64,000 nucleotides of DNA. Source: Patescibacteria group bacterium. Its GTDB lineage: Bacteria; Patescibacteriota; Minisyncoccia; Minisyncoccales; UBA10102. Position numbers and translations under genes: made by a program. The first letter of the stretch is position 1; each line of letters begins with the position of its first letter. The DNA lies in contig JADFNM010000001.1 in the NCBI GenBank assembly GCA_022563395.1, positions 83,891-147,890 of the forward strand, in the 5' to 3' direction. Below the pieces are notes generated by a model that was given only the letters and a program-made list of their open reading frames with translations, did no database searches and had not been told where the DNA came from. Below, piece after piece: positions 6,805-62,507 of the stretch.

Positions 6805-7368
6805 ATGAACATTTTCCCCCACATCTTAAATAGGGGACTGGCCCACGTGGTAAGATTCAGCTCTATTCCCCAGCATTTTCCAGAGAGCGTGGCAGAGCAT
6901 TCCTTTTACACCGCTTACTATGTTTCCCTGCTCTGTGATATTTTGGAAAAAGCAGACATTGAGATAAACCGAGAGAAAGCAGTCACCATGGCTTTGATTC
7001 ACGACACAGAGGAGATGTTTTCAGGCGACATCCTCACTCCATTTAAGCATTATTCAAACGAGGTAAAAGAAACCATCCAAAAGGTGAACCGCGAGGTCAT
7101 CCCTCAGGTGTATGAGGGATTGCCAAAAGACATGAAAGAGAAATACATTGCCCTCTGGAATGAAGATTCAAATGGGGAGAGTATGGAGGCAAAGATAGTA
7201 AAAGTTGCAGACAGACTATCTCTACTTTCAAAGTGTGCTGAAGAGGTAAAGGTGGGAAACGGATACTTTGAGAATATTTACGAGAGCCAGTTGAAACTAC
7301 TTAAAGATTATGATGCTTCCTGGTGGCAGAAGATAAAAGAGCAGGTCCTCCCCAAGAGTGCTGCTTAA
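6805..7368 (+). CDS. HD-domain phosphohydrolase (YfbR-like 5'-deoxynucleotidase)
   Basis: ESVAEHS...LIHDTEE...VADRLS is an HD motif set. I prefer the ATG at 6805 because TGTTACAAT lies 6 nt upstream. The ORF track starts at a TTG at 6769. Confidence 0.75.
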   Translation: MNIFPHILNRGLAHVVRFSSIPQHFPESVAEHSFYTAYYVSLLCDILEKADIEINREKAVTMALIHDTEEMFSGDILTPFKHYSNEVKETIQKVNREVIPQVYEGLPKDMKEKYIALWNEDSNGESMEAKIVKVADRLSLLSKCAEEVKVGNGYFENIYESQLKLLKDYDASWWQKIKEQVLPKSAA

Positions 7369-9989: not shown

Positions 9990-12098
9990 ATGCCGAGACA
10001 ATACCCTATTGAGAGAGTGCGCGATATTGGAATAATCGCCCACATTGACGCCGGGAAAACCACCACGACCGAGCGTATTTTGTTTTACACGGGTATTTCC
10101 CACAAGATAGGGGAGGTGCATGAAGGGGCAGCTATCATGGACTGGATGGAGCAAGAGAGGGAACGCGGCATTACCATTACCGCAGCCGCCACCACGTGCT
10201 TTTGGACTCCAACCTATGTGAAAGAGAAGAACAAAGAAAAGGAGGTTCGAATCAACATTATTGATACTCCGGGCCACATTGACTTTACCGTAGAGGTACA
10301 GCGCTCCTTGCGGGTGCTGGACGGTGCCATTGTCGTGTTTGACGGAGTGGCGGGGGTGGAACCCCAGTCAGAAACGGTGTGGCGCCAAGCCGACAAATTT
10401 GAGGTTCCCCGTATGTGTTTTATCAACAAGTTAGATCGCATGGGAGCTTCTTTTGAGAAAAGCTTTGGCTCCATTGTAGAAAAACTTACGCCAAATGCTG
10501 TAGCGGTGCAGATTCCTAATGGAGAAGAGGACCAATTCTCAAAGATAATCGACTTAATTTCAATGAAGGCATACTCGTTTACGGGGGACTTTGGGGAAAC
10601 GGTCAAAGAGGAGGAAATTCCAGCAGATTTAAAAGAGAAGGCAAAAGTGTGGCGAGAAAAACTCATGGAAAAGGTAGCAGGAGAGGACGAGTCTTTAATG
10701 AATAGGTATCTTGCGGGAGAAGAAATACCGGCTCTAGATATAAAGAGAGTATTGCGCAAAGCCGCTTTGGCAAATAAGTTGATTCCCGTGTTTGTGGGTT
10801 CTTCTTTAAAAAACAAAGGTGTGCAGTTAATGCTTGACGGAGTGGTGGACTATCTGCCTTCTCCTCAAGATGTTCCTCCCATTAAAGGGATTGACCCGCG
10901 TTCCGGCCAGGAGATTGAACGCCACGCAATAGATACGGAACCCTTCTCTGCTCTTGCCTTCAAGATTGCAACCGATCCCTTTGTAGGTACCCTAACGTAT
11001 TTTCGCGTGTACTCCGGTACTTTAAAAAAGGGCTCGTATGTGTATAACGCTACGACGGGCGTCAAAGAGAGGATTTCTCGTATCTTGAGAATGCATGCGA
11101 ATGAAAGAGAAGAGGTGGAGGAGCTCTATGCGGGGGACATTGCTGCCACTGTGGGGCTTAAAAACACTTCCACGGGGCACACCTTGTCGGACGAAGCAAA
11201 CCCCATCTTGCTTGAACAGATTACCTTTCCAGAGCCTGTTATTTCGGTTCGCATTGAACCTGCCACCAAAGCTGACCAGGAGAAAATGGGCATGGCGTTA
11301 AAACGTTTGTCGGACGAAGACCCAACCTTTAGGGTTTTAACAGACCAGGAGACCAAAGAGATCATTATCTCTGGCATGGGAGAGCTGCACTTGGAAATCA
11401 TCGTAGACCGAATGAAAAGAGAGTTTAATGTTACAGCCAATGTTGGAAGACCTCAGGTTGCCTACAAGGAAACCATTAAGCAAGAAGCAGAAGCAGAAGA
11501 GAAGTATGTCAGGCAGTCTGGCGGTCGTGGGCAGTATGGTCACGTCGTTTTGAGCGTTGAGGCCAAGGAGCGGGGAGAGGGCTTTGAGTTTGTAAATAAG
11601 ATTAAGGGCGGCGCTATTCCTCAAGAATACATTCCAGCCGTAGAAAAAGGAGTAAAAGAAGCCATGGACAAGGGAGTGATAGCTGGGTATCCTGTTATTG
11701 ACTTGAAAGCAACGCTGCTTGACGGGTCTTTTCATGAGGTGGACTCTTCTGAGTTTGCCTTTAAGATTGCCGCCTCCATTGCCTTTCAGGCTGCAGCAAA
11801 GAAAGCTCATGCAGTGTTGCTGGAACCCGTAATGTCGCTTGAGGTAATAATACCCTCTAATTTTCTTGGAGACGTAATTGGAGATTTGTCAGCAAGAAGA
11901 GGAAGGATTGAAGAGACAAAAGACCGGGGAAACCTCAAGGTGATAGATGTCAAGATTCCTTTATCTGAGATGTTTGGGTATGCCACCAACGTGAGGTCCT
12001 TGACCGAAGGAAGAGGAACCTTTACCATGGAGTTCAACACGTATGAGGAGGTGCCGGGGAATATAGCAAATGAAATTATTGAAGGCAAGCGCAGATAA
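9990..12098 (+). CDS. fusA: Elongation factor G
   Basis: [20 protein letters not shown], 702 aa, str-operon position. Confidence 0.97.
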
Positions 12099-12105
12099 AA
12101 GAACT

Positions 12106-12312
12106 ATGGACTTGGAAGAATTAAAACGCATACTGCAAAAAGATAAGGGAAAGATTATCATTGTTGAAAACGGAAAGCCCGTGATGATAATTCTCCCCTA
12201 CGAAAATCAGGACTTGCATCATAGCCAAGAGGAGGCAGTTGAACCTCCTTTGGAGGAAGAAGAGATGGGGCCTGTTCCTGGGGAGTTGACAATTGACGAT
12301 TTGCCGCTATAA
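12106..12312 (+). CDS. Small acidic hypothetical protein with weak Phd/YefM-like N-terminus
   Basis: MDLEELKRILQKDKGKIIIVENGKPVMIILPYENQ followed by an acidic tail. No partner toxin gene is present. Confidence 0.4.
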   Translation: MDLEELKRILQKDKGKIIIVENGKPVMIILPYENQDLHHSQEEAVEPPLEEEEMGPVPGELTIDDLPL

Positions 12313-12429
12313 TTGGAACATTGTCAATTAACGAGCAGTAGCGAGTATAATTGGAACATTGTCAATTAACGAGCAGTAGCGAGTATAATTGGAACATTGT
12401 CAATTAACGAGCAGTAGCGAGTATAATTG
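12308..12429 (+). repeat. Perfect 38-bp tandem repeat x3 plus 8-nt partial fourth copy
   Basis: The unit TATAATTGGAACATTGTCAATTAACGAGCAGTAGCGAG starts at 12308, 12346 and 12384, with a partial copy at 12422. Copy 1 overlaps the upstream stop codon. Confidence 0.95.
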
Positions 12430-14068: not shown

Positions 14069-14187
14069 CCTAAATGTAATTAAGGAATCCTTAGTTTCAT
14101 TTAGGAGATATGTGCAAGAATCAGTACTGCTTAAACGAGATTTAAGCAAACCAAAGAATCGCCAAACAGGCGGTTTTTTGGTAGAAT
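14069..14187 (+). repeat. Full composite intergenic repeat (palindrome A + tail + X2 + hairpin/T-tract/-10 module)
   Basis: Module A at 14069-14105, AGATATGTG at 14106-14114, CTTAAACGAGATTTAAG at 14130-14146, GGCGGTTTTTTGGTAGAAT at 14169-14187. Confidence 0.85.
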
Positions 14188-14193
14188 AAAAAT

Positions 14194-14907
14194 ATGAAGC
14201 TAGAGAACAAAACCGCATTAATAACTGGGGGTTCGCAAGGAATTGGTAAGGCTATTGCTGGGAGGTTTATTAGGGAAGGTGCAAAGGCCATAGTTTTTGA
14301 TGTTAAAAAGCCAGACTACGAGGCAGAATTTTATCAAGTCGATATACGAGAAGAAGAACAAATCAAAGCAGCTTTTGAACAAATCAAAAGTCTAGATATT
14401 CTCGTCAATAATGCTGGCGTTTACTTTGAGGAGGCGGTAGAGAGCACAACAAAGAAGCAGTTGGATGACATTGTTGATACCAACATTAAGGGGACGTATT
14501 TGATGTGCACGTATGGGATTCCGCTGATTAAGAATAGTAAGGGTACTATCATTAACATCTCTTCTGGGCTTGGGTTAGTCCCCGACCCAGCTGCTCCTGC
14601 ATATTGTGCAACGAAAGCCGCTATAACCATGCTCACAAAATGCATGGCACAGGAGTATGCTGCAGAAGGAGTAAGGATAAATGCAATTCTGCCTGGTCCA
14701 ATTGATACACCGATGTTGAGGAGTGTCTTTGCTTCTGAGAAAGAATTTGATGACTATGCGAAATCGAATCCACTAGGGAAAATTGGGAAAGTAGAGGATG
14801 TTGCAAATGTTGCAGCTTTTTTGGCATCAGACGAAGCAAGCTACGTAACTGGAAGTTTGTATACGGTTGATGGAGGAGAGTCTTCATCAAGCCTGCACTC
14901 TAAATAA
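14194..14907 (+). CDS. Short-chain dehydrogenase/reductase (FabG-like)
   Basis: TGGSQGIG cofactor motif, NNAG, and a YxxxK catalytic motif (YCATK). Confidence 0.85.
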   Translation: MKLENKTALITGGSQGIGKAIAGRFIREGAKAIVFDVKKPDYEAEFYQVDIREEEQIKAAFEQIKSLDILVNNAGVYFEEAVESTTKKQLDDIVDTNIKGTYLMCTYGIPLIKNSKGTIINISSGLGLVPDPAAPAYCATKAAITMLTKCMAQEYAAEGVRINAILPGPIDTPMLRSVFASEKEFDDYAKSNPLGKIGKVEDVANVAAFLASDEASYVTGSLYTVDGGESSSSLHSK

Positions 14908-14949
14908 AACAGGTTCTAACGTCGTCCAGTAGGGGGGGGAGCCATTATT

Positions 14950-15083
14950 GCTTAAACGAGATTTAGGCAATATTCATTTAAATGAATGGTTCCTTAATGA
15001 AATTAAGGAGATATGCGGGAAGTCATTAGTTCTTAAACGAGATTTAAGCAAACCAGGAACCGCCCACTAAGAGCGGTTTTTGG
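14950..15083 (+). repeat. Composite intergenic repeat (X2, 16-nt palindrome, half-A + tail, X2, hairpin/T-tract)
   Basis: GCTTAAACGAGATTTAGGC at 14950-14968, ATTCATTTAAATGAAT at 14972-14987, CCTTAATGAAATTAAGG+AGATATGCG at 14992-15017, X2 at 15032-15048, and a hairpin plus T5 at 15060-15081. Confidence 0.85.
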
Positions 15084-15091
15084 TTGATGTG

Positions 15092-15120
15092 TTGACAGTC
15101 TTTGAGTATTGTCATATACT
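15092..15120 (+). promoter_or_regulatory. Strong sigma70-like promoter TTGACA-17-TATACT upstream of rplC
   Basis: -35 at 15092-15097 and -10 at 15115-15120. A 106-nt leader follows. Confidence 0.6.
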
Positions 15121-15226
15121 CTATTCTATGAACGCTAAGCCAGCCTTGTGAGCGGCGGAGAGGTTGTAGCCACACTACGTCTATGTTAGATGTGCCAGGG
15201 TTACACCCTGGCGTTTTGTTGTAAAT

Positions 15227-16411: not shown

Positions 16412-16882
16412 ATGCCATTCAGCTTTTTAAAAAAGTTAAAAGAAATAAGGAAAGAATTAGACCCCAGGCGTTCTTCGACCTCTCAAAAAGGACTCCACGA
16501 GACACGTGCCCGCGCGAAACAAGCAGTTGACTCTCACCCAAAAGAACATGAAGCCGCTCCACAGTCAGCTCCTGTTATAAAAAAGAAGGTAAAGAGGGCA
16601 CCTTCTTTCCCAAGTGTTTTGTTGAATCCACACATCACAGAAAAGGCAACCTTGCTGGGGGAGAAGGGGCAGTATGTGTTTCGGGTTCAACCACAGGCAA
16701 CAAAAGACGCAGTGAAACAGTCGGTGGAAGCGCTGTATGGAGTTGCGGTTCGAAACGTTCGCTTGATAAAGAAGCCAGCAAAGAAGATTCGTATTGGCCG
16801 AAGAGAAGGCGTAAAACAAGGATTGAAAAAGGCAGTGGTTCAACTAAAAGCAGGAGAAAGCATTGAAGTTATTTCAAGATAG
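16412..16882 (+). CDS. rplW: 50S ribosomal protein L23 with about 60-aa basic N-terminal extension
   Basis: The C-terminal part (LLNPHITEKATLL...YVFRV) is L23; operon order. Confidence 0.9.
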   Translation: MPFSFLKKLKEIRKELDPRRSSTSQKGLHETRARAKQAVDSHPKEHEAAPQSAPVIKKKVKRAPSFPSVLLNPHITEKATLLGEKGQYVFRVQPQATKDAVKQSVEALYGVAVRNVRLIKKPAKKIRIGRREGVKQGLKKAVVQLKAGESIEVISR

Positions 16883-16883
16883 T

Positions 16884-17666
16884 ATGCCAAAGGTTTCAAA
16901 GAAACGACCAGAAAAAGCATTGCTGAGGTATCTTAGTAAAAGTGGAGGGAGGAACAACAGGGGCAGGATCACCGTGTGGCACAGAGGAGGAGGGGTAAAA
17001 CGTCTCTATCGTGTAGTTGACTTTGCACAGGGGCATCTTAACATGCCCGGCAAAGTTGTTGCCATTGAATACGATCCCAACCGCAATGCGCGACTTGCCT
17101 TGCTGGAGTATGAAAATGGGGAGCGCTCTTACGTCTTGGCTCCGCATGAGCTCAAAGAGGGTGACGAGATTGTGACAAAAGACAAGACTGAGATACGAAC
17201 CGGAAATAGAATGCGCATTGGCAATATTCCCGTTGGAACCATGGTGTACAATGTGGAGTTAAGCCCTGACCGAGGCGGAAAGCTTGTGCGTGGAGCGGGG
17301 GCCGCAGCTCAGGTACTTTCGCATGATGCAGGGTATACCCACTTGGCACTGCCATCCACGGAAGTAAGGAGGATTCCTTCAAAAAGTTTTGCTTCAGTGG
17401 GTATGGTTTCCAATCCAGAATACCGATACCAAAAGGTAAAAAATGCAGGCTCAAACCGCCTGAAAGGAAAACGCCCCAAGGTTAGAGGAACCGCGATGAA
17501 CCCTGTGGATCATCCCCACGGGGGAGGTGAGGGAAGGACCGGAAGGGGAATGAAGCATCCCAAAACCCCCTGGGGAAAGCCTGCCTTGGGAGTGAAAACC
17601 AGAAAGAAGAAATGGTCAGACAAGCTTATTGTACAGCGGAGGAAAAAGAAAAAGCGAAAGAAATAA
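16884..17666 (+). CDS. rplB: 50S ribosomal protein L2
   Basis: [16 protein letters not shown] and HPHGGGEG motifs. The ATG at 16884 follows the rplW stop. Confidence 0.95.
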
Positions 17667-17671
17667 AAACC

Positions 17672-17992
17672 ATGGCACGATCACTCAAGAAGGGCCCATA
17701 CATTGACGAAAATCTTCAAAATCGGTTAAAAAACCGAAAACTGGGAGACAAGACCGTTTTAAAAACCTGGTCTAGGAGAGCCACCATTACTCCAGAAATG
17801 GTTGGGTTCATCTTTGGCGTGCATACGGGAAAAGACTTTGTGCAAGTTGTGGTACATGAAGAGATGGTGGGCCATAAACTGGGTGAGTTTGCAGCAACCA
17901 CGAAATTTTCCCGTCATGGTGGAAGGATGCAAAAAGAAATAGAGCAAAAGGCGGCAACGGGCGCTGCTCCGGCCGCAGCAGAGAAGAAGTAA
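17672..17992 (+). CDS. rpsS: 30S ribosomal protein S19 (C-terminal Ala/Lys tail)
   Basis: [12 protein letters not shown]...; internal ATG of ORF 17612-17992. Confidence 0.93.
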
Positions 17993-17993
17993 C

Positions 17994-18485
17994 ATGAAAG
18001 CAACGGCAAAACTGAGGTATTTAAGAATGGCACCTCGCAAGGTTCGCATGGCGGTTGACCTCATTCGGGGAAAGAAGGTTGTGGAAGCGCAACGCCTGCT
18101 TCAATTTGCCGCAAAACATTCTGCATTGCCGGTGTTAAAAACGCTAAACTCAGCTATTGCTTCCGCAAAGAACAATTTTGAGGCGGACGTGGCCAATTTA
18201 TATATCTCCCATATTGCGGTAAACGAGGGACCAAAGTTAAAGCGATACCGCCCAAGGGCGCGGGGACAGGCCTACGAGATCCAGAAGAAGACTTCCCATC
18301 TTACCATTGTGGTAGATGAGATTGAGCAGGGTAAGACAAAGAAAGCCCTGCCTAAATCTCGTTTAGGAACTCCTAACCGAGATTTAGGCAAAACTGCAAA
18401 GCCAAGTTTTCGGCCAGTGCAGGAAACCGCAAAGCAAAAGGAACCGAGAGGAATGCAGAGAATGTTTAGAAGAAAAAGTATCTAA
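17994..18485 (+). CDS. rplV: 50S ribosomal protein L22 with about 50-aa C-terminal extension
   Basis: MKATAKLRYLRMAPRKVR...; the extension contains repeat units. Confidence 0.92.
   Translation: MKATAKLRYLRMAPRKVRMAVDLIRGKKVVEAQRLLQFAAKHSALPVLKTLNSAIASAKNNFEADVANLYISHIAVNEGPKLKRYRPRARGQAYEIQKKTSHLTIVVDEIEQGKTKKALPKSRLGTPNRDLGKTAKPSFRPVQETAKQKEPRGMQRMFRRKSI
18351..18389 (+). repeat. Two X2-type repeat units inside the rplV coding sequence
   Basis: CCTAAATCTCGTTTAGG at 18351-18367 and CCTAACCGAGATTTAGGC at 18372-18389. Translated in frame they read LPKSRLGTPNRDLGK. Confidence 0.8.
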
Positions 18486-18487
18486 CC

Positions 18488-19120
18488 ATGACACATAAAG
18501 TACATCCCAAAATCTTTCGCATCAGGGAAACCAAGGACTGGCTTTCTCGTTGGGTTGACAAGAGATTGTATGCTAAAACCCTAGAGGAGGATTTTCGCAT
18601 TCGAGAGTTCTTGCAAAAGAAACTGAAAGATGCTTCTTTGGAATCCATTGAGATTGAGCGGGCGGCTTCGCGCATCACGGTCATTATCAATTCAGGGAGA
18701 CCAGGATTGATCATTGGAAGGGGAGGGTCTGGTATTGAGATTGTGAAAAAGGCGCTGCAAAAGCTTGTTGGAGTAAAAGACATTCGCTTGGAGATTCGAG
18801 AAATCAAGAACCCCTTAGAGTCAGCTACTCTGATAGCCCAGAACATTGCCCAGCAGTTAGAAAAGAGAATGCCGCACCGCAGGGTCTTAAAGCAGATCAT
18901 GCAAAAGATTATGGCAAACAAAGAAATTCAGGGAGCTAAATTGGAGGTGGCGGGACGTTTGGGTGGAGCGGATATTGCCAGGCGAGAAGGATTAAAAGAG
19001 GGTCGCTTGCCTTTGCAGACCATGCGTTCTGTAGTAGATTATGCCTTAGTGGAGGCTAGAACCACGTATGGCACTATTGGGGTGAAGGTATGGCTGTACA
19101 AAGGAGAAAAATTTGACTAA
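18488..19120 (+). CDS. rpsC: 30S ribosomal protein S3
   Basis: [10 protein letters not shown]..., KH domain GRGGSGIE; operon order. Confidence 0.95.
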
Positions 19121-28331: not shown

Positions 28332-28409
28332 GCCTAAATCTCATTTAAGCAATATCAATAGTGCCTAAATGAAATTAAGGATTCCTTAATTTCATTTAGG
28401 AGATATTCG
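28332..28409 (+). repeat. Intergenic repeat: reversed X2 unit + 37-nt palindrome A + tail
   Basis: GCCTAAATCTCATTTAAGC at 28332-28350, module A at 28364-28400, AGATATTCG at 28401-28409. Confidence 0.85.
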
Positions 28410-29145: not shown

Positions 29146-29263
29146 CCTTAATGAAATTAAGGATTCCTAAATTTCATTAAGGAGATATGCGAAGAACCAT
29201 TAGCTCCTAAACGAGATTTAAGCAAGCCAAAGAATCGCTAGGAAGGCGGTTTTTTGATAGGAT
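29146..29263 (+). repeat. Full composite intergenic repeat
   Basis: An A variant at 29146-29182, AGATATGCG at 29183-29191, CCTAAACGAGATTTAAG at 29206-29222, GGCGGTTTTTTGATAGGAT at 29245-29263. Confidence 0.85.
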
Positions 29264-33223: not shown

Positions 33224-35044
33224 ATGGGGGCAAACGAGATACGAGAAAAGTATCTGAACTTTTTTAAAGAGCGGGGGCACAGCATTATTCCCTCTTCTTC
33301 TTTAGTTCCAGAAAATGATCCCACCACCTTGTTTGTGGGTTCTGGCATGCAGCCGCTGATTCCCTACCTTTTGGGCGTAAAGCACCCCATGGGCTCTCGT
33401 CTGGTAAACTCACAAAAGAGTTTTCGGGCAGAAGACATAGAAGAGGTGGGCGACAATCGCCACACCACTTTTTTTGAGATGCTCGGGAACTGGTCGCTGG
33501 GCGACTATTTTAAGGAAGAACAGCTTTCTTGGTTTTTCTCTTTTTTAACAGATGAGATGGGCTTGGACCCTCAAAAACTCTACGTCACCGTGTTTTCTGG
33601 AGACACAGAGAACAATATTCCCAAAGACGAGGAGTCCATTGCCATTTTAAAACGCCTATTTCAAGAAAGGGGGATTGAGGCAAAGGAGGGGGAGCGCATC
33701 TTTGCCTATGGGGTCGAAAAAAACTGGTGGAGCAGATCAGGAATCCCTTCCAATATGCCAGTAGGTGAGCCGGGAGGCCCTGATTCTGAGGTTTTTTACG
33801 ACTTTGGCACTCCACATGATATAAGGTATGGCGAAAAGTGTCATCCAAACTGCGACTGTGGAAGGTTCCTTGAAATAGGGAACTCCGTATTTATGGAATA
33901 CAAAAAGAAGGACGACGGGAGTTTTGAAAAACTCAAACAGCGCAACGTAGACTTTGGCGGGGGATTGGAAAGGATTACGGCTGCAGTGAACAATGAGCCA
34001 GATGTATTCAAGGGAGATCTACTATTTCCTCTCATTCAAAAAGCAGCAGAGCTTTCTGGCAGGAGCTACGAGAAACACGTCAATTCTTTTCGCGTCATTG
34101 CAGATCATGTGAGAGGAGCTGCCTTTATGATTGGAGATGGCGTTATTCCTTCTAATACAGAGCGCGGATATATTGTTAGAAGATTGCTTCGCCGTGCAGT
34201 GCGCCACGCTGATTTAATAGGAATGGAAGAGGGAAATCTGGCCCTGTTCGTCGATCCTTTACTTGCCGCATATCAAAAAGTATACCCCGAGGTTGCAGAA
34301 CGCAGAGAAGAGATTGTGCAGCATATCCAAGAAGAGGAAAAGAGGTTTCGCATCACTCTTCAAAATGGATTGAAGGAATTTGAGAAACTTTCTGGAAACA
34401 ATATTTCTGGCAAGGAGGCTTTTGACCTCTATCAGACCTATGGATTTCCTCTCGACGTTACCCTAGAGCTTGCAAGGGAAAAAGGAGTTACGGTAGATAC
34501 TACAAGTTTTGAGCAAGAGTTTTTAAAGCATCAAGAAGTTTCCCGGACTGCAGCAGCAGGAAGGTTTAAAGGAGGTCTTGCTGATACCTCCTATGAAACA
34601 ACAAAACTTCATACCACAAACCATTTATTGCTTGCGGCTCTCCGCAAAGTACTTGGGCAAAACGTGCACCAGCGGGGAAGCAACATTACGGCAGAACGCA
34701 TCCGCCTGGATTTCTCTCATGGGCAAAAGATGACTCCAGAGGAGATACAACAGGTTGAGGATTTGACGAATGAAAAAATTCAAGAGGGTCTGGATATGGT
34801 CAGAAAAGAAATGTCAAAAGAGGAAGCAGTAAAATTGGGGGCCGAAATGGAGTTTGGGATAAAGTATGGAGATGTGGTGTCTGTGTATGTCGCACAAGAT
34901 AAAAAAGGGAATGTATTTTCCAAAGAGTTTTGTGGTGGGCCCCATGTGAAAAGTACCTCAGAGCTCGGCAAGTTTAGAGTTGTGAAGGAAGAGGCAGTCT
35001 CTGCTGGCGTGCGCCGCATCCGCGCAGTATTAGAACCTAAATGA
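33224..35044 (+). CDS. alaS: Alanine--tRNA ligase, short form (606 aa, no C-Ala/DHHA1 region)
   Basis: IREKYLNFFKERGH...FVGSGMQP, editing HxxxH (HTTNHLL) and CGGPHV. Confidence 0.92.
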   Translation: MGANEIREKYLNFFKERGHSIIPSSSLVPENDPTTLFVGSGMQPLIPYLLGVKHPMGSRLVNSQKSFRAEDIEEVGDNRHTTFFEMLGNWSLGDYFKEEQLSWFFSFLTDEMGLDPQKLYVTVFSGDTENNIPKDEESIAILKRLFQERGIEAKEGERIFAYGVEKNWWSRSGIPSNMPVGEPGGPDSEVFYDFGTPHDIRYGEKCHPNCDCGRFLEIGNSVFMEYKKKDDGSFEKLKQRNVDFGGGLERITAAVNNEPDVFKGDLLFPLIQKAAELSGRSYEKHVNSFRVIADHVRGAAFMIGDGVIPSNTERGYIVRRLLRRAVRHADLIGMEEGNLALFVDPLLAAYQKVYPEVAERREEIVQHIQEEEKRFRITLQNGLKEFEKLSGNNISGKEAFDLYQTYGFPLDVTLELAREKGVTVDTTSFEQEFLKHQEVSRTAAAGRFKGGLADTSYETTKLHTTNHLLLAALRKVLGQNVHQRGSNITAERIRLDFSHGQKMTPEEIQQVEDLTNEKIQEGLDMVRKEMSKEEAVKLGAEMEFGIKYGDVVSVYVAQDKKGNVFSKEFCGGPHVKSTSELGKFRVVKEEAVSAGVRRIRAVLEPK

Positions 35045-35141
35045 AATTAAGGAATCCTTAATTTCATTTAGGAGATATGTGGAGAACCAGTAGCTCCTAA
35101 ACGAGATTTAAGCAAACCAAAGAATCGCTAGAGGGATGGTG
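35036..35141 (+). repeat. Composite intergenic repeat overlapping the alaS stop codon
   Basis: Module A at 35036-35072 includes CCT AAA TGA of alaS. AGATATGTG at 35073-35081, X2 at 35096-35112, and a degenerate third module. Confidence 0.85.
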
Positions 35142-41907: not shown

Positions 41908-42029
41908 GTACTCCTAAACGAGATTTAGGAGTACCTAAATCTCGTTTAGGAGATATGCAAAGCAACCACATAAACTAATAGTGCCTAAATGAAATTAAGG
42001 AATCCTTAATTTCATTTAGGAGATATGCG
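41908..42029 (+). repeat. Intergenic repeat: X2 inverted pair + palindrome A + tail
   Basis: GTACTCCTAAACGAGATTTAGGAGTAC at 41908-41934, CCTAAATCTCGTTTAGG+AGATATGCA at 41934-41959, module A at 41984-42020, AGATATGCG at 42021-42029. Confidence 0.85.
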
Positions 42030-42085: not shown

Positions 42086-43363
42086 ATGGAGAAATTCGTT
42101 ATTCATGGAGGGAAGCATCTTAAGGGAGAGATTGACGTTAAAGGGGCAAAGAATGCCGCCTTTCCGATTTTAGCTGCTACCATTTTAACCAAAGAAGACT
42201 GCACGATTAAAAATCTTCCCTTAATTGAGGATGTGTTTCGCATGATCGAGATTTTAGAAAGCATGAAGGCAAAGGTAGAATGGGTGGAAAAAAGATCGGT
42301 GAGGATAAACACAAAAAACTTGAATCCTGCCACCATTGACAAAAAAGCTATCTTAAAGTTCCGGGGGTCTGTGCTTTTGTACGGGCCATTGCTTACGCGA
42401 TTTGGGAAAATATATCTTCCCAAGCCTGGAGGAGACATTATTGGAGCACGGCCCATAGACACCCATTTGGATGCCTTTTCTCAGTTGGGCACTTTTGTGA
42501 AGCCGCGGCTCAAAGGATTTGAGCTGAGATTCTCTGGGAAGGCAAAAAACAAGGTGGTTGTGCTTAATGAGTTCTCGGTTACGGGCACAGAAAACCTCTT
42601 GCTCTTTTGTGCGCTGAGACCAGAGCGTATTGTTATAAAGATTGCAGACATGGATTACCAGGTGCAAGAGTTAATGCGAGTGTTGCGAAAAATGGGGGTG
42701 TGGATTAGGGTTTCTGGGTTGCATGAGATAACCATTCAAGGAAAGAAAGGATTAAAAAGGTTTTCCCATACCATTATTCCAGACCCAATTGAAGCTGCCA
42801 CCTTCATTGTCATGGCTATTGGAACACAAGGGAAAGTGCTGGTGAAAAATGTCTCCATACGGTTTCTGGAATTCTTTTTTAAAAAGCTCCATGACTTTGG
42901 TGCAAATCTTAAGATTCAAGAGCAGCGAGGAGGCATTGGCACTGTCCAGGTCTTGCCAGCTAGAAAGCTCAAAATAGATAAGATTCAGAGCTTGATTTAC
43001 CCCGGCATTCCATCTGACCTTCAGTCGGTACTGGGAGTGCTTGCTACACAAAGTAAAGGCTCCACGCTTTTGCACGATCCTTTGTATGAAGGGAGGTTAA
43101 AGTACCTTGAAGAGCTCAACAAAATGGGAGCTGAAATTTACTTTACCGACCCTCATCGGGCAATCATCAACGGTCCTACGAAGCTTCGCGGCACCGATCT
43201 TGGCACGTTTGACTTAAGAGGGGGAGCTGCCCTTATCATGGCAGCCCTAATGGCAGAAGGAAAAAGCACGATTGATAATATCTACCAGGTGGACCGGGGA
43301 TATGAGAGAATAGAAGAGCGCCTGCAAAAACTGGGAGCGGATATTAAACGCATAACGATATGA
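42086..43363 (+). CDS. murA: UDP-N-acetylglucosamine 1-carboxyvinyltransferase
   Basis: GAKNAAFPILAATIL..., 425 aa, EPSP-synthase fold pattern. Confidence 0.93.
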   Translation: MEKFVIHGGKHLKGEIDVKGAKNAAFPILAATILTKEDCTIKNLPLIEDVFRMIEILESMKAKVEWVEKRSVRINTKNLNPATIDKKAILKFRGSVLLYGPLLTRFGKIYLPKPGGDIIGARPIDTHLDAFSQLGTFVKPRLKGFELRFSGKAKNKVVVLNEFSVTGTENLLLFCALRPERIVIKIADMDYQVQELMRVLRKMGVWIRVSGLHEITIQGKKGLKRFSHTIIPDPIEAATFIVMAIGTQGKVLVKNVSIRFLEFFFKKLHDFGANLKIQEQRGGIGTVQVLPARKLKIDKIQSLIYPGIPSDLQSVLGVLATQSKGSTLLHDPLYEGRLKYLEELNKMGAEIYFTDPHRAIINGPTKLRGTDLGTFDLRGGAALIMAALMAEGKSTIDNIYQVDRGYERIEERLQKLGADIKRITI

Positions 43364-46784: not shown

Positions 46785-46877
46785 CTTAAACGAAATTTAA
46801 GCACCCTTAATTTCATTAAGGATATATGCGTTTATCTTAAAACAAAGAATCGCAAACAGGTGGTTTTTTGGTAAAAA
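46785..46877 (+). repeat. Rearranged composite intergenic repeat
   Basis: CTTAAACGAAATTTAAGC at 46785-46802, CCTTAATTTCATTAAGG+ATATATGCG at 46805-46830, AACAAAGAATCGC...GGTGGTTTTTTGGTAAAAA ending at 46877. Confidence 0.8.
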
Positions 46878-46883
46878 GAAGAT

Positions 46884-47621
46884 ATGAGATTTGAGAAGTG
46901 GCACGGTCTTGGGAACGACTTTATTCTTTTGGATTGCCGGGTCAACGATATCCCAAATAAAAAGGCACTTGCTATCAAACTTTGTGATAGGCACTTTGGC
47001 ATTGGGGCAGACGGCCTTGTATGTATCTTACCGAGCATTGTGGCAGATTACACAATGGAGATTTTCAACCCAGACGGGAGTGAGGCTGAAATGTGCGGGA
47101 ACGCAATTCGCTGCGTTGCAAAGTTGCTCAAGAAATCTCCTGTGACTATTGAGACTTCATCTGGGATAAAAGAATGTGTTGCGCAAACGGATGGTTCAGT
47201 CAAGGTTAATATGGGAAGCCCCTTAAATATTAAAAAACAAGGCAGGTTTACAACCCTCTCTATGGGTAATCCTCATGCAGTTCTCTATGTAGACAACTTT
47301 GACTTTGATTGGAAGCAAGAAGGAGAAAAGATTGAGAACAATAGAGAGATGTTTCCAGAAAGAACAAATGTAGAGTTTGTGAAAATACTCAACGACGATA
47401 CCATCCGGGTGAAGGTATGGGAAAGGGGAGCTGGCGCAACGCTTGCATGTGGGACAGGAGCATGTGCTTCTATTGTAGCGGCTGTAATCGATAAAGGTAT
47501 TCACCGGGATGTCAACGTAGAACTACCTGGAGGAAAGCTGTTCGTGTCTTGGTCTGAATCTGGAGATGTTTACATCACAGGGCCGGCTGAGAAGGTTTTT
47601 GAAGGAGATTTGGTTTTATGA
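46884..47621 (+). CDS. dapF: Diaminopimelate epimerase (short form)
   Basis: FEKWHGLGNDFILLD, GNPH, ACGTGA catalytic Cys motifs. Confidence 0.88.
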   Translation: MRFEKWHGLGNDFILLDCRVNDIPNKKALAIKLCDRHFGIGADGLVCILPSIVADYTMEIFNPDGSEAEMCGNAIRCVAKLLKKSPVTIETSSGIKECVAQTDGSVKVNMGSPLNIKKQGRFTTLSMGNPHAVLYVDNFDFDWKQEGEKIENNREMFPERTNVEFVKILNDDTIRVKVWERGAGATLACGTGACASIVAAVIDKGIHRDVNVELPGGKLFVSWSESGDVYITGPAEKVFEGDLVL

Positions 47622-47677
47622 GAGCTAGGTTTTAACATCCCTTTAGAGGAGGGCCGGCGTCTCGCAGAGCTATTACT

Positions 47678-47765
47678 GCTTAAACGAGATTTAAGCAAAC
47701 TCACCTAAAGCGAGCGGTTCTTAAACGAAATTAAGGATTCCTTAATTTCGTTAAGGAGATATACG
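47678..47765 (+). repeat. Intergenic repeat: X2 unit + palindrome A variant + tail
   Basis: GCTTAAACGAGATTTAAGC at 47678-47696, CTTAAACGAAATTAAGGATTCCTTAATTTCGTTAAGG at 47720-47756, AGATATACG at 47757-47765. Confidence 0.85.
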
Positions 47766-54520: not shown

Positions 54521-54566
54521 CCTAAATGAAATTAAGGATGCCTTAATCTCATTTAGGAGATATGCG
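54521..54566 (+). repeat. Intergenic repeat: palindrome A + tail
   Basis: CCTAAATGAAATTAAGGATGCCTTAATCTCATTTAGG at 54521-54557, AGATATGCG at 54558-54566. Confidence 0.85.
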
Positions 54567-62426: not shown

Positions 62427-62456
62427 ACTATAGCAGAGACAAATAATGCGGGTCAA
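62427..62456 (-). promoter_or_regulatory. thyA promoter TTGACC-18-TATAGT, 6 nt before ATG (minus strand)
   Basis: -35 at 62451-62456 abuts the repeat tail; -10 at 62427-62432. Confidence 0.5.
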
Positions 62457-62498
62457 TATCTCCTAAATGAAATTAAGAAATCCTAAATTTCGTTTAAG
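62456..62498. repeat. Intergenic repeat units in the divergent thyA/folA spacer
   Basis: ATATCT+CCTAAATGAAATTAAG at 62456-62477 is the tail plus half-A in reverse, facing thyA. CCTAAATTTCGTTTAAG at 62482-62498 faces folA. Confidence 0.75.
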
Positions 62499-62507
62499 CA
62501 ACCAACA

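Follow-up and report, generated by a model that had tools for sequence, protein, structure and literature searches.

The rplV locus

The window is the whole stretch of DNA analysed here, 64,000 nt from a CPR (Patescibacteria) bacterium, and all positions refer to it. Its rplV gene encodes ribosomal protein uL22 (L22) and lies between the genes for S19 (17612-17992) and S3 (18488-19120), an order that is the same in the related loci L001, L151 and L159 (L numbers denote the sequences used for comparison). The rplV frame is the sole long ORF at the position of the repeat described below, and only 2 nt separate its stop codon (18483-18485) from rpsC. Residues 5-107 of the product match the Pfam domain Ribosomal_L22 (E 1.7e-36; 124.9 bits, with a cut-off of 28), and 845 homologues of L22 were found among 5.8 billion proteins searched. 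The uL22 chains of the PDB, which depict a typical bacterial L22 of 110-120 residues, match down to E 1e-31, with the alignment reaching only to about residue 110-134. The features discussed in the text are collected in Table 1.

Two neighbouring genes have N-terminal additions. The uL23 frame (16412-16882) has an extension of about 68 residues, and the longest rpsS ORF has about 22 residues before the S19 domain. The true start codon is uncertain in both cases, and both additions agree with reports that several ribosomal proteins are enlarged in CPR bacteria.

Table 1. Positions of the rplV features and of two intergenic repeat doublets in the window.
Feature	Position	Strand	Description
rplV (uL22) coding sequence, 163 aa	17994..18485	+	ORF list; Pfam PF00237; flanked by rpsS and rpsC (S10-spc operon)
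L22 conserved core domain (aa 5-107)	18006..18314	+	Pfam; AlphaFold pLDDT >90 over most of the core
C-terminal extension, D108-I163, 56 aa, Lys/Arg-rich	18315..18482	+	Alignment; homologue lengths; predicted disordered
REPIN-like doublet, hairpin, 42 nt/14 codons	18349..18390	+	TG + unit 1 + AACT + unit 2 + CA; palindrome perfect but for one position
X2 unit 1, 17 nt, CCTAAATCTCGTTTAGG	18351..18367	+	P120 K S R L G125; identical to intergenic copy 41934-41950
X2 unit 2 (inverted), 17 nt, CCTAACCGAGATTTAGG	18372..18388	+	P127 N R D L G132
KPSFRP motif, conserved, 3' of the linker	18399..18416	+	K-P-x-F-R/K-P in most aligned Parcubacteria L22 and in most outgroup DNA
C-terminal motif RG.QR.FRRKSI, conserved	18447..18482	+	Followed by the stop codon at 18483-18485; alignment; 120 homologues
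X1 doublet at the 3' end of an AlaRS-like gene	35036..35072	+	First unit gives the last two codons and the stop
Closest intergenic X2 doublet, 4-nt spacer, upstream of murA	41913..41950	+	Opposite unit order; -31.2 kcal/mol, z -9.9

The C-terminal extension of L22

Since the Pfam match stops at residue 107, the C-terminal extension comprises 56 residues, and its 9 Lys and 7 Arg bear out the Lys/Arg-rich tail of about 50 residues described in an earlier note on this DNA. AlphaFold gives pLDDT values below 50 at residues 113-136 and 142-150; a confident core with a low-pLDDT tail is, for a predicted model, the usual picture of an rRNA-dependent extension. In an alignment of 37 L22 homologues, which includes sequences named as Nealsonbacteria, Wildermuthbacteria and Parcubacteria DG_72, the linker from the core to the KPxFRP motif is rich in Lys, Glu and Pro, variable in length and unalignable, and the residues F158, R159, R160 and K161 are invariant. 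The basic motif KPxFRP...RG..R.FRRKSI presumably contacts rRNA.

The best 120 of the 845 homologues have 147-195 residues, with a mean of 168, and FRRKxx or FKRKxx forms the C-terminus of about 112 of them, whether or not the repeat is present. The window protein thus belongs with the long-tailed uL22 of Parcubacteria, whose extension has about 40-80 residues and closes with FRRK(S/A)x. Outgroup linkers (L004-L007, L012, L014, L071 and L072) are equal in length or longer, and their DNA contains nothing unit-like. Because these unit-free outgroups have linkers at least as long, the tail and the position of the stop codon predate the repeat doublet. The long L22 tail is a trait of the Parcubacteria lineage, older than the doublet and not made by it. 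A search with the tail only (31 residues, KTAKPSFRP...FRRKSI) in a representative library of 1.84 billion proteins gave no match at E <=0.001; this query is short and of low complexity, and the conservation of the tail is therefore argued from full-length alignments.

Enlarged uL22 proteins of CPR bacteria have already been reported (PMC9297842), and extended forms are found elsewhere (Mycobacterium, 153-197 aa; Mycoplasma, 159 aa; chloroplast uL22c). Like these, the window L22 continues beyond its core with a basic C-terminal extension that probably binds rRNA. Unlike these, the Parcubacteria tail has its own KPxFRP...FRRKSI pattern; the extensions present in the PDB are unalignable with it, and a PDB sequence search gave no solved uL22 that aligns with the window tail.

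A recent insertion of the repeat into this genome might be thought to have created the roughly 50-residue tail or displaced the stop codon, given that the repeat is located in the tail and that bacterial L22 is typically so much shorter. However, the tail, its length class and the FRRK motif are common to hundreds of repeat-free Parcubacteria L22 proteins, the doublet covers just 13-14 of the 56 tail codons, and relatives carry it as well. This explanation is refuted, and we consider it extremely improbable. Since the repeat did not give rise to the tail, the rplV stop codon was not displaced; the displacement that had been suggested as an alternative is contradicted by the nearly uniform FRRK ends described above.

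A repeat doublet in the rplV reading frame

Positions 18351-18389 read CCTAAATCTCGTTTAGG-AACT-CCTAACCGAGATTTAGG-C and are in frame in rplV. The translation across the doublet is ALPKSRLGTPNRDLGK, in which 13 L22 residues are encoded and T126 sits between the residues of the two units; coordinates, sequence and translation are as first described. Unit 2 (repeat family D9) has one mismatch to the consensus CCTAAACGAGATTTAGG, changing K to N, and is one base off the copy at 41913. With the unit pattern arising at a background of 6e-6 per base, two adjacent units are unexpected by chance. Tryptic peptides expected from this region of the tail are LGTPNR and TAKPSFRPVQETAK.

The RNA of the doublet folds with -27.2 kcal/mol (z -7.5), which is equalled by none of 200 shuffles, and CAAAACTGCAAAG follows the hairpin. 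A MITE would have terminal inverted repeats and a target-site duplication; the present element is palindromic over its whole length, and the L22 sequences on either side (CTG and CAA) show no direct duplication. Of the three frames of an X2 unit, two are interrupted by TAA or TAG, whichever way the unit is oriented; the only open one (frame 1 in unit 1) is that used in L22 and gives PKSRL or PKRDL. The period of the doublet is 21 nt, which keeps both units in the open frame, and the whole palindrome amounts to 14 codons. The doublet has neither a T-run nor any site resembling a promoter or terminator (positions 17900-18700 were scanned for terminators), and so lacks the make-up of an intrinsic terminator or attenuator, a GC-rich stem with a T-run behind it. 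Rfam models at gathering thresholds match tRNAs only, with no family at the doublet.

The presence of the element in rplV could in principle be an artefact, in the form of a mis-assembly that collapsed the repeat into the gene, or else a chance resemblance of Lys, Pro and Arg codons, and the one point in favour of this is that the repeat is dispersed. Against it, L003, an independent assembly of the window species with three amino acid differences in the L22 core, has an identical doublet, and therefore an assembly artefact is excluded. In addition, the frame through to FRRKSI is conserved in all relatives compared. Artefact and chance are thereby refuted and retain virtually no probability.

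The repeat family in the window

The two rplV units belong to a family that is otherwise extragenic. The 11-mer CCTAAATCTCG, with at most one mismatch, occurs 14 times (0.95 expected; none of 100 shuffles reaches 14), and the degenerate 17-mer C[CT]T[AT]A[AC]-N5-[GT]T[AT]A[AG]G defines 32 units in the 64-kb window, or about one unit per 2 kb. The same 17-mer has 11 matches in 1.74 Mb of related Parcubacteria loci (0.06 per 10 kb), which is about 80-fold fewer. Thirty of the 32 units lie outside stop-to-stop ORFs of at least 80 codons, and those inside are the L22 pair only, so the membership in an extragenic family that had been proposed for the pair is established.

The units occur as singlets or as inverted doublets, with a spacer of 3 nt for X1 and 4 nt for X2, and are scattered in groups of 1-4 without tandem arrays. 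X1 units outnumber X2 units. Doublets of both types fold as 17-bp hairpins (z -6.4 to -9.9). The L22 doublet and the intergenic X2 units have TG...CA flanks in common; beyond the unit, homology between the L22 flank and the 40-nt 3' flanks of intergenic X2 units is no better than with shuffles. The L22 doublet has the order TCTCG unit then CGAGA unit, reversed with respect to the only other X2 doublet with a 4-nt spacer (41913-41950).

Some units reach into the ends of genes. At the AlaRS-like gene, the unit at 35036-35044 results in the C-terminus EPK*, compared with ES* in L154 and KT* in L155, and the TAA of an HD-domain gene is supplied by the unit at 7364-7368. In most cases an X1 doublet precedes AGATATGCG or a version of it with one base changed, which gives rise to AGGAG-N4-ATG (a Shine-Dalgarno sequence and start codon); such sites are at 28364-28409, 29146-29191, 35036-35081, 41984-42029, 54521-54566 and, inverted, 62455-62500. 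The AGGAG-N4-ATG often opens a mini-ORF of 7-11 codons, and the orientation of the element matches that of the downstream gene. At 62455-62500 the X1-associated motif provides the TTG start of the minus-strand thyA.

None of the 34 window proteins scanned has a transposase domain, including Y1_Tnp (RAYT). Among viral contigs, CCTAAACGAGATTTAGG had two isolated matches, too few to indicate a phage source. Our literature search found no palindromic intergenic repeat family described in Patescibacteria.

Other features of the window

A conserved leader lies upstream of rplC (window 15090-15222; L001 7060-7180; L149 40-150). It consists of a promoter, TTGACA-17-TATACT, followed by ATGAACGCTAAGCCAGCCTTGTGAGCGGCGG and by a hairpin that carries a T-run, and may be a ribosomal-protein autoregulatory leader; it has no Rfam match at gathering thresholds. 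The fusA-tuf spacer (12308-12429) contains a perfect tandem repeat of three overlapping 46-nt copies with a 38-nt period (100% identical). The window MurA (42086-43363) is 85% identical to that of an L005-type genome (P0130) and 75% identical to that of an L001-type genome (P0139); these values conflict with the ribosomal-protein tree, where L001 is closer to the window, and the conflict suggests transfer or rate variation at murA.

Distribution of the family in related genomes

The family is dense in the window species only. L149 has a single copy, upstream of rplC, and L156 has one decayed X1 doublet between the genes for an M50 protease and ProRS (proS). Family copies are absent from L001 with L154 (the L001 genome, 42 kb), L155 (19 kb), L151 (12 kb), L152 (3.7 kb), and L005 and L006 (20 kb each). 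The same L22 extension, with a diverged doublet at the same codons, occurs in such family-free relatives (L001 with L154, 42 kb; L151, 12 kb), which is essentially the finding that the earlier note had itself named as telling against its reading.

Occupancy also differs at orthologous sites. The units upstream of murA are missing from the corresponding sites in L154, L155 and L156, and those around dapF from the sites in L154 and L155. Two genes of the window are bracketed by clusters of units, and at both places relatives are without the gene: an SDR gene (14194-14907; clusters within 14069-15048) in the rpsJ-rplC interval, and dapF (46884-47621; clusters within 46785-47756) in the M50 protease-proS interval. 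Operators of a transcription factor are disfavoured, the units being missing at orthologous intergenic sites of close relatives; unlike conserved operators, the family fits expanding or mobile repeats of the REP/REPIN type.

L001 contains no X1 or X2 units and has a palindromic repeat of its own, TTTCGTA.ATTCGTAA..ATTCGTAATTCGTAGGA, at 2515-2550 and 10565-10600. One copy of this repeat lies in the 112-nt spacer directly 3' of the rplV stop codon, and the rplV 3' end is evidently a tolerated landing zone.

Age and decay of the rplV doublet

We compared the rplV DNA of nine relatives, and a recognisable version of the doublet is present at the same codons in all nine. L148 and L150 have a perfect consensus unit 2, CCTAAACGAGATTTAGG. 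In L152 and L068, which encode the same L22, unit 1 is CCTAAATCTCGCTTA, with one change in 15 retained bases and one codon lost, and the L001 doublet is CCTAAACCTGGTTTAGG AGTG CCTAAGCGAGACTTGG. The doublets of L149, L151 and L153 are more decayed, and that of L159 is decayed with three codons lost, but is not an empty site. Majority-rule and parsimony reconstruction gives an intact or near-perfect ancestral doublet, CCTAAATCTCGYTTAGG-AGCT-CCTAARCGAGATTTAGG.

A tree of the L22 core only (336 nt) did not resolve the branching (0.5-20% support), and a tree of seven proteins (858 columns) was used instead. It groups the window, L151, L001 and L152 with 92% bootstrap support, and places L005 and L006, which have unit-free linkers, outside. 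Ribosomal-protein identity of clade members to the window is roughly 70-100%. Because diverged versions occupy the same codons across this clade, the doublet is old; it dates to the stem of a genus-level clade, and is neither recent nor specific to this genome. Scans of genomes and metagenome contigs with L22 gave only relatives of at most 70% identity that are without the doublet, the exception being L068.

Within the clade, mean pairwise amino acid identity reaches 0.89 in the core and 0.71-0.72 in KTAKPSFRP and at the C-terminal end, but only 0.42 in unit-1 residues and 0.62 in unit-2 residues; the doublet residues are the least conserved part of L22, which demonstrates their lack of constraint. 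Only the window has a strong hairpin (z is -1.0 to -3.2 in relatives); there, as in L003, 33 of 34 unit positions are retained. Because relatives show decay of both peptide and hairpin, we see no evidence of exaptation, and the doublet has the appearance of a neutral, tolerated passenger. The invasion of the rplV 3' end proposed in the earlier note is therefore upheld as regards homology and read-through, and not as regards the making of the tail or a recent, genome-specific event; its suggestion that the repeat was exapted as coding sequence is not supported.

The intact state of the doublet in the window lineage might alternatively reflect selection on the 42-nt hairpin as a functional cis-element, acting in mRNA stability or processing, ribosome pausing or factor binding in the S10-spc transcript just upstream of rpsC. 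The near-complete retention of the units and the very stable hairpin in the window and L003, with relatives decayed, are in line with such a role, as is the orientation of intergenic units relative to downstream genes. Yet the hairpin and peptide are conserved in no other member of the clade, the doublet lacks any T-run, promoter-like or terminator-like site or Rfam family, and the intergenic units are unconserved at orthologous sites of relatives, contrary to operator function. We consider selection of this kind quite unlikely.

Origin of the doublet

With moderate confidence, we interpret the doublet as a REPIN-like X2 element that was captured in frame, long ago, by the disordered linker of an already existing uL22 tail and has since decayed neutrally. 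The uL22 core, a variable Lys/Pro/Glu-rich linker and the conserved basic motif existed before the repeat, and in the ancestor of the clade an inverted X2 doublet of 38-42 nt would have become part of the linker. It would have persisted because each X2 unit has one stop-free frame in each orientation, because a unit period of 21 nt (42 nt once TG and CA are counted) leaves the frame undisturbed, and because the linker is disordered and unconstrained. Since then it has been read as PKSRLG-T-PKRDLG, and in most lineages it has drifted by substitutions and deletions. The window lineage, which still has many copies of the family, retains the doublet almost unchanged, and gene conversion from those intergenic copies may have helped in this. 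We assume that the family was present at the time of capture.

No empty site was found among the relatives, that is, no orthologue alignable on both sides that is without the doublet, and the outgroup linkers are unalignable and no shorter. The direction of the change, an insertion, is therefore one that we infer, together with arrival by insertion or recombination from the family and a hairpin-based (REP/RAYT-like) mobilisation. The L22 linker is no longer than outgroup linkers (23-27 residues or more), which counts against capture by insertion. Also weighing against it are the lack of family copies in the sampled DNA of the deeper clade members, the lack of a RAYT or other transposase in the window, and the reversed unit order relative to 41913-41950.

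This lack of a net insertion is also consistent with an origin in situ, in which the palindrome arose in the L22 linker, for example by template switching or inverted duplication, and seeded X2 or was later homogenised with it by gene conversion. The reconstruction of the doublet in the clade ancestor is compatible with such a history, since 12-42 kb from its deeper members are free of family copies, and the family is dense in the window species only, with single copies in L149 and L156; however, the sampling of relatives is small and mostly covers gene-dense ribosomal operons. What decides us against L22 as the source is that the intergenic X2 units share only TG...CA with L22, their flanks otherwise scoring like shuffles, and that the more numerous X1 units are without an L22 counterpart. 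In addition, we know of no precedent for a coding segment founding a palindromic extragenic family, which also counts against this origin. We regard it as unlikely.

A further idea is that the rplV copy serves as a long-lived master that seeds or reseeds the X2 family, or as a selected site at which a unit-recognising factor acts on the operon. We think this very unlikely. If true, it would mean that the coding constraint of an essential gene shelters a mobile or regulatory palindrome over genus-level time.

Comparison with known repeat systems

Capture from the X2 family resembles what is known of the Rickettsia palindromic elements (RPEs; Ogata et al. 2000, 2002), which, according to the summary in PMC10969869, are about 100-150 bp long and enter ORFs often (44 times in R. 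conorii). Both are dispersed palindromic families with a copy translated in frame in a housekeeping ORF, where it forms an extra or replaced peptide at a place that the protein tolerates, with the downstream protein preserved. The X2 element differs in its size (38-42 nt), in having one intragenic site among 32 units in 64 kb, and in the absence of an empty-site orthologue demonstrating insertion. Because the element is much shorter and its insertion is not demonstrated, the likeness is an analogy only: RPEs may be seen as the closest functional analogue, without membership, and the X2 element is set apart by its size.

REPs form hairpin doublets known as REPINs (Bertels and Rainey 2011, PMC3116915), and in P. 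fluorescens a small minority of REPs overlaps genes (14 of 1,067 16-mers; PMC3116915). The X1/X2 family shares with them a short imperfect palindromic unit that is strongly over-represented and almost wholly extragenic, inverted doublets with short spacers and long hairpins, and turnover, seen as presence or absence at orthologous sites. Unlike REPs, the X1/X2 units are shorter (17-23 nt) and AT-rich, with spacers of 3-4 nt. No RAYT (IS200/IS605-type Y1 transposase) was found among the 34 proteins scanned in the 64-kb window. Unlike REPINs, the X1 doublets point towards downstream genes and carry AGGAG-N4-ATG.

Two other kinds of repeat were considered and set aside, the units being dispersed in groups of 1-4 in the window. 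These are TIGR arrays (PMC12045711), which are tandem and for which the window has no Tas gene, and integron attC sites, for which it has no integrase gene.

Implications

The rplV doublet is a new example of a known phenomenon, the absorption of a palindromic repeat in frame into a gene. Its distinguishing aspect is that the host gene encodes an essential ribosomal protein in a CPR bacterium and that the repeat has been retained over genus-level time. The understanding of uL22 is unchanged, with the conserved C-terminal motif being the part that deserves structural study. Judged by the L22 copy, the unit sequence is at least as old as the clade ancestor. The copy also illustrates where a coding sequence can accommodate such elements, namely in a disordered linker and with an element that has one stop-free frame and a length divisible by three. 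Basically, small, streamlined CPR genomes can carry a dense palindromic family of the REP/REPIN-like type.
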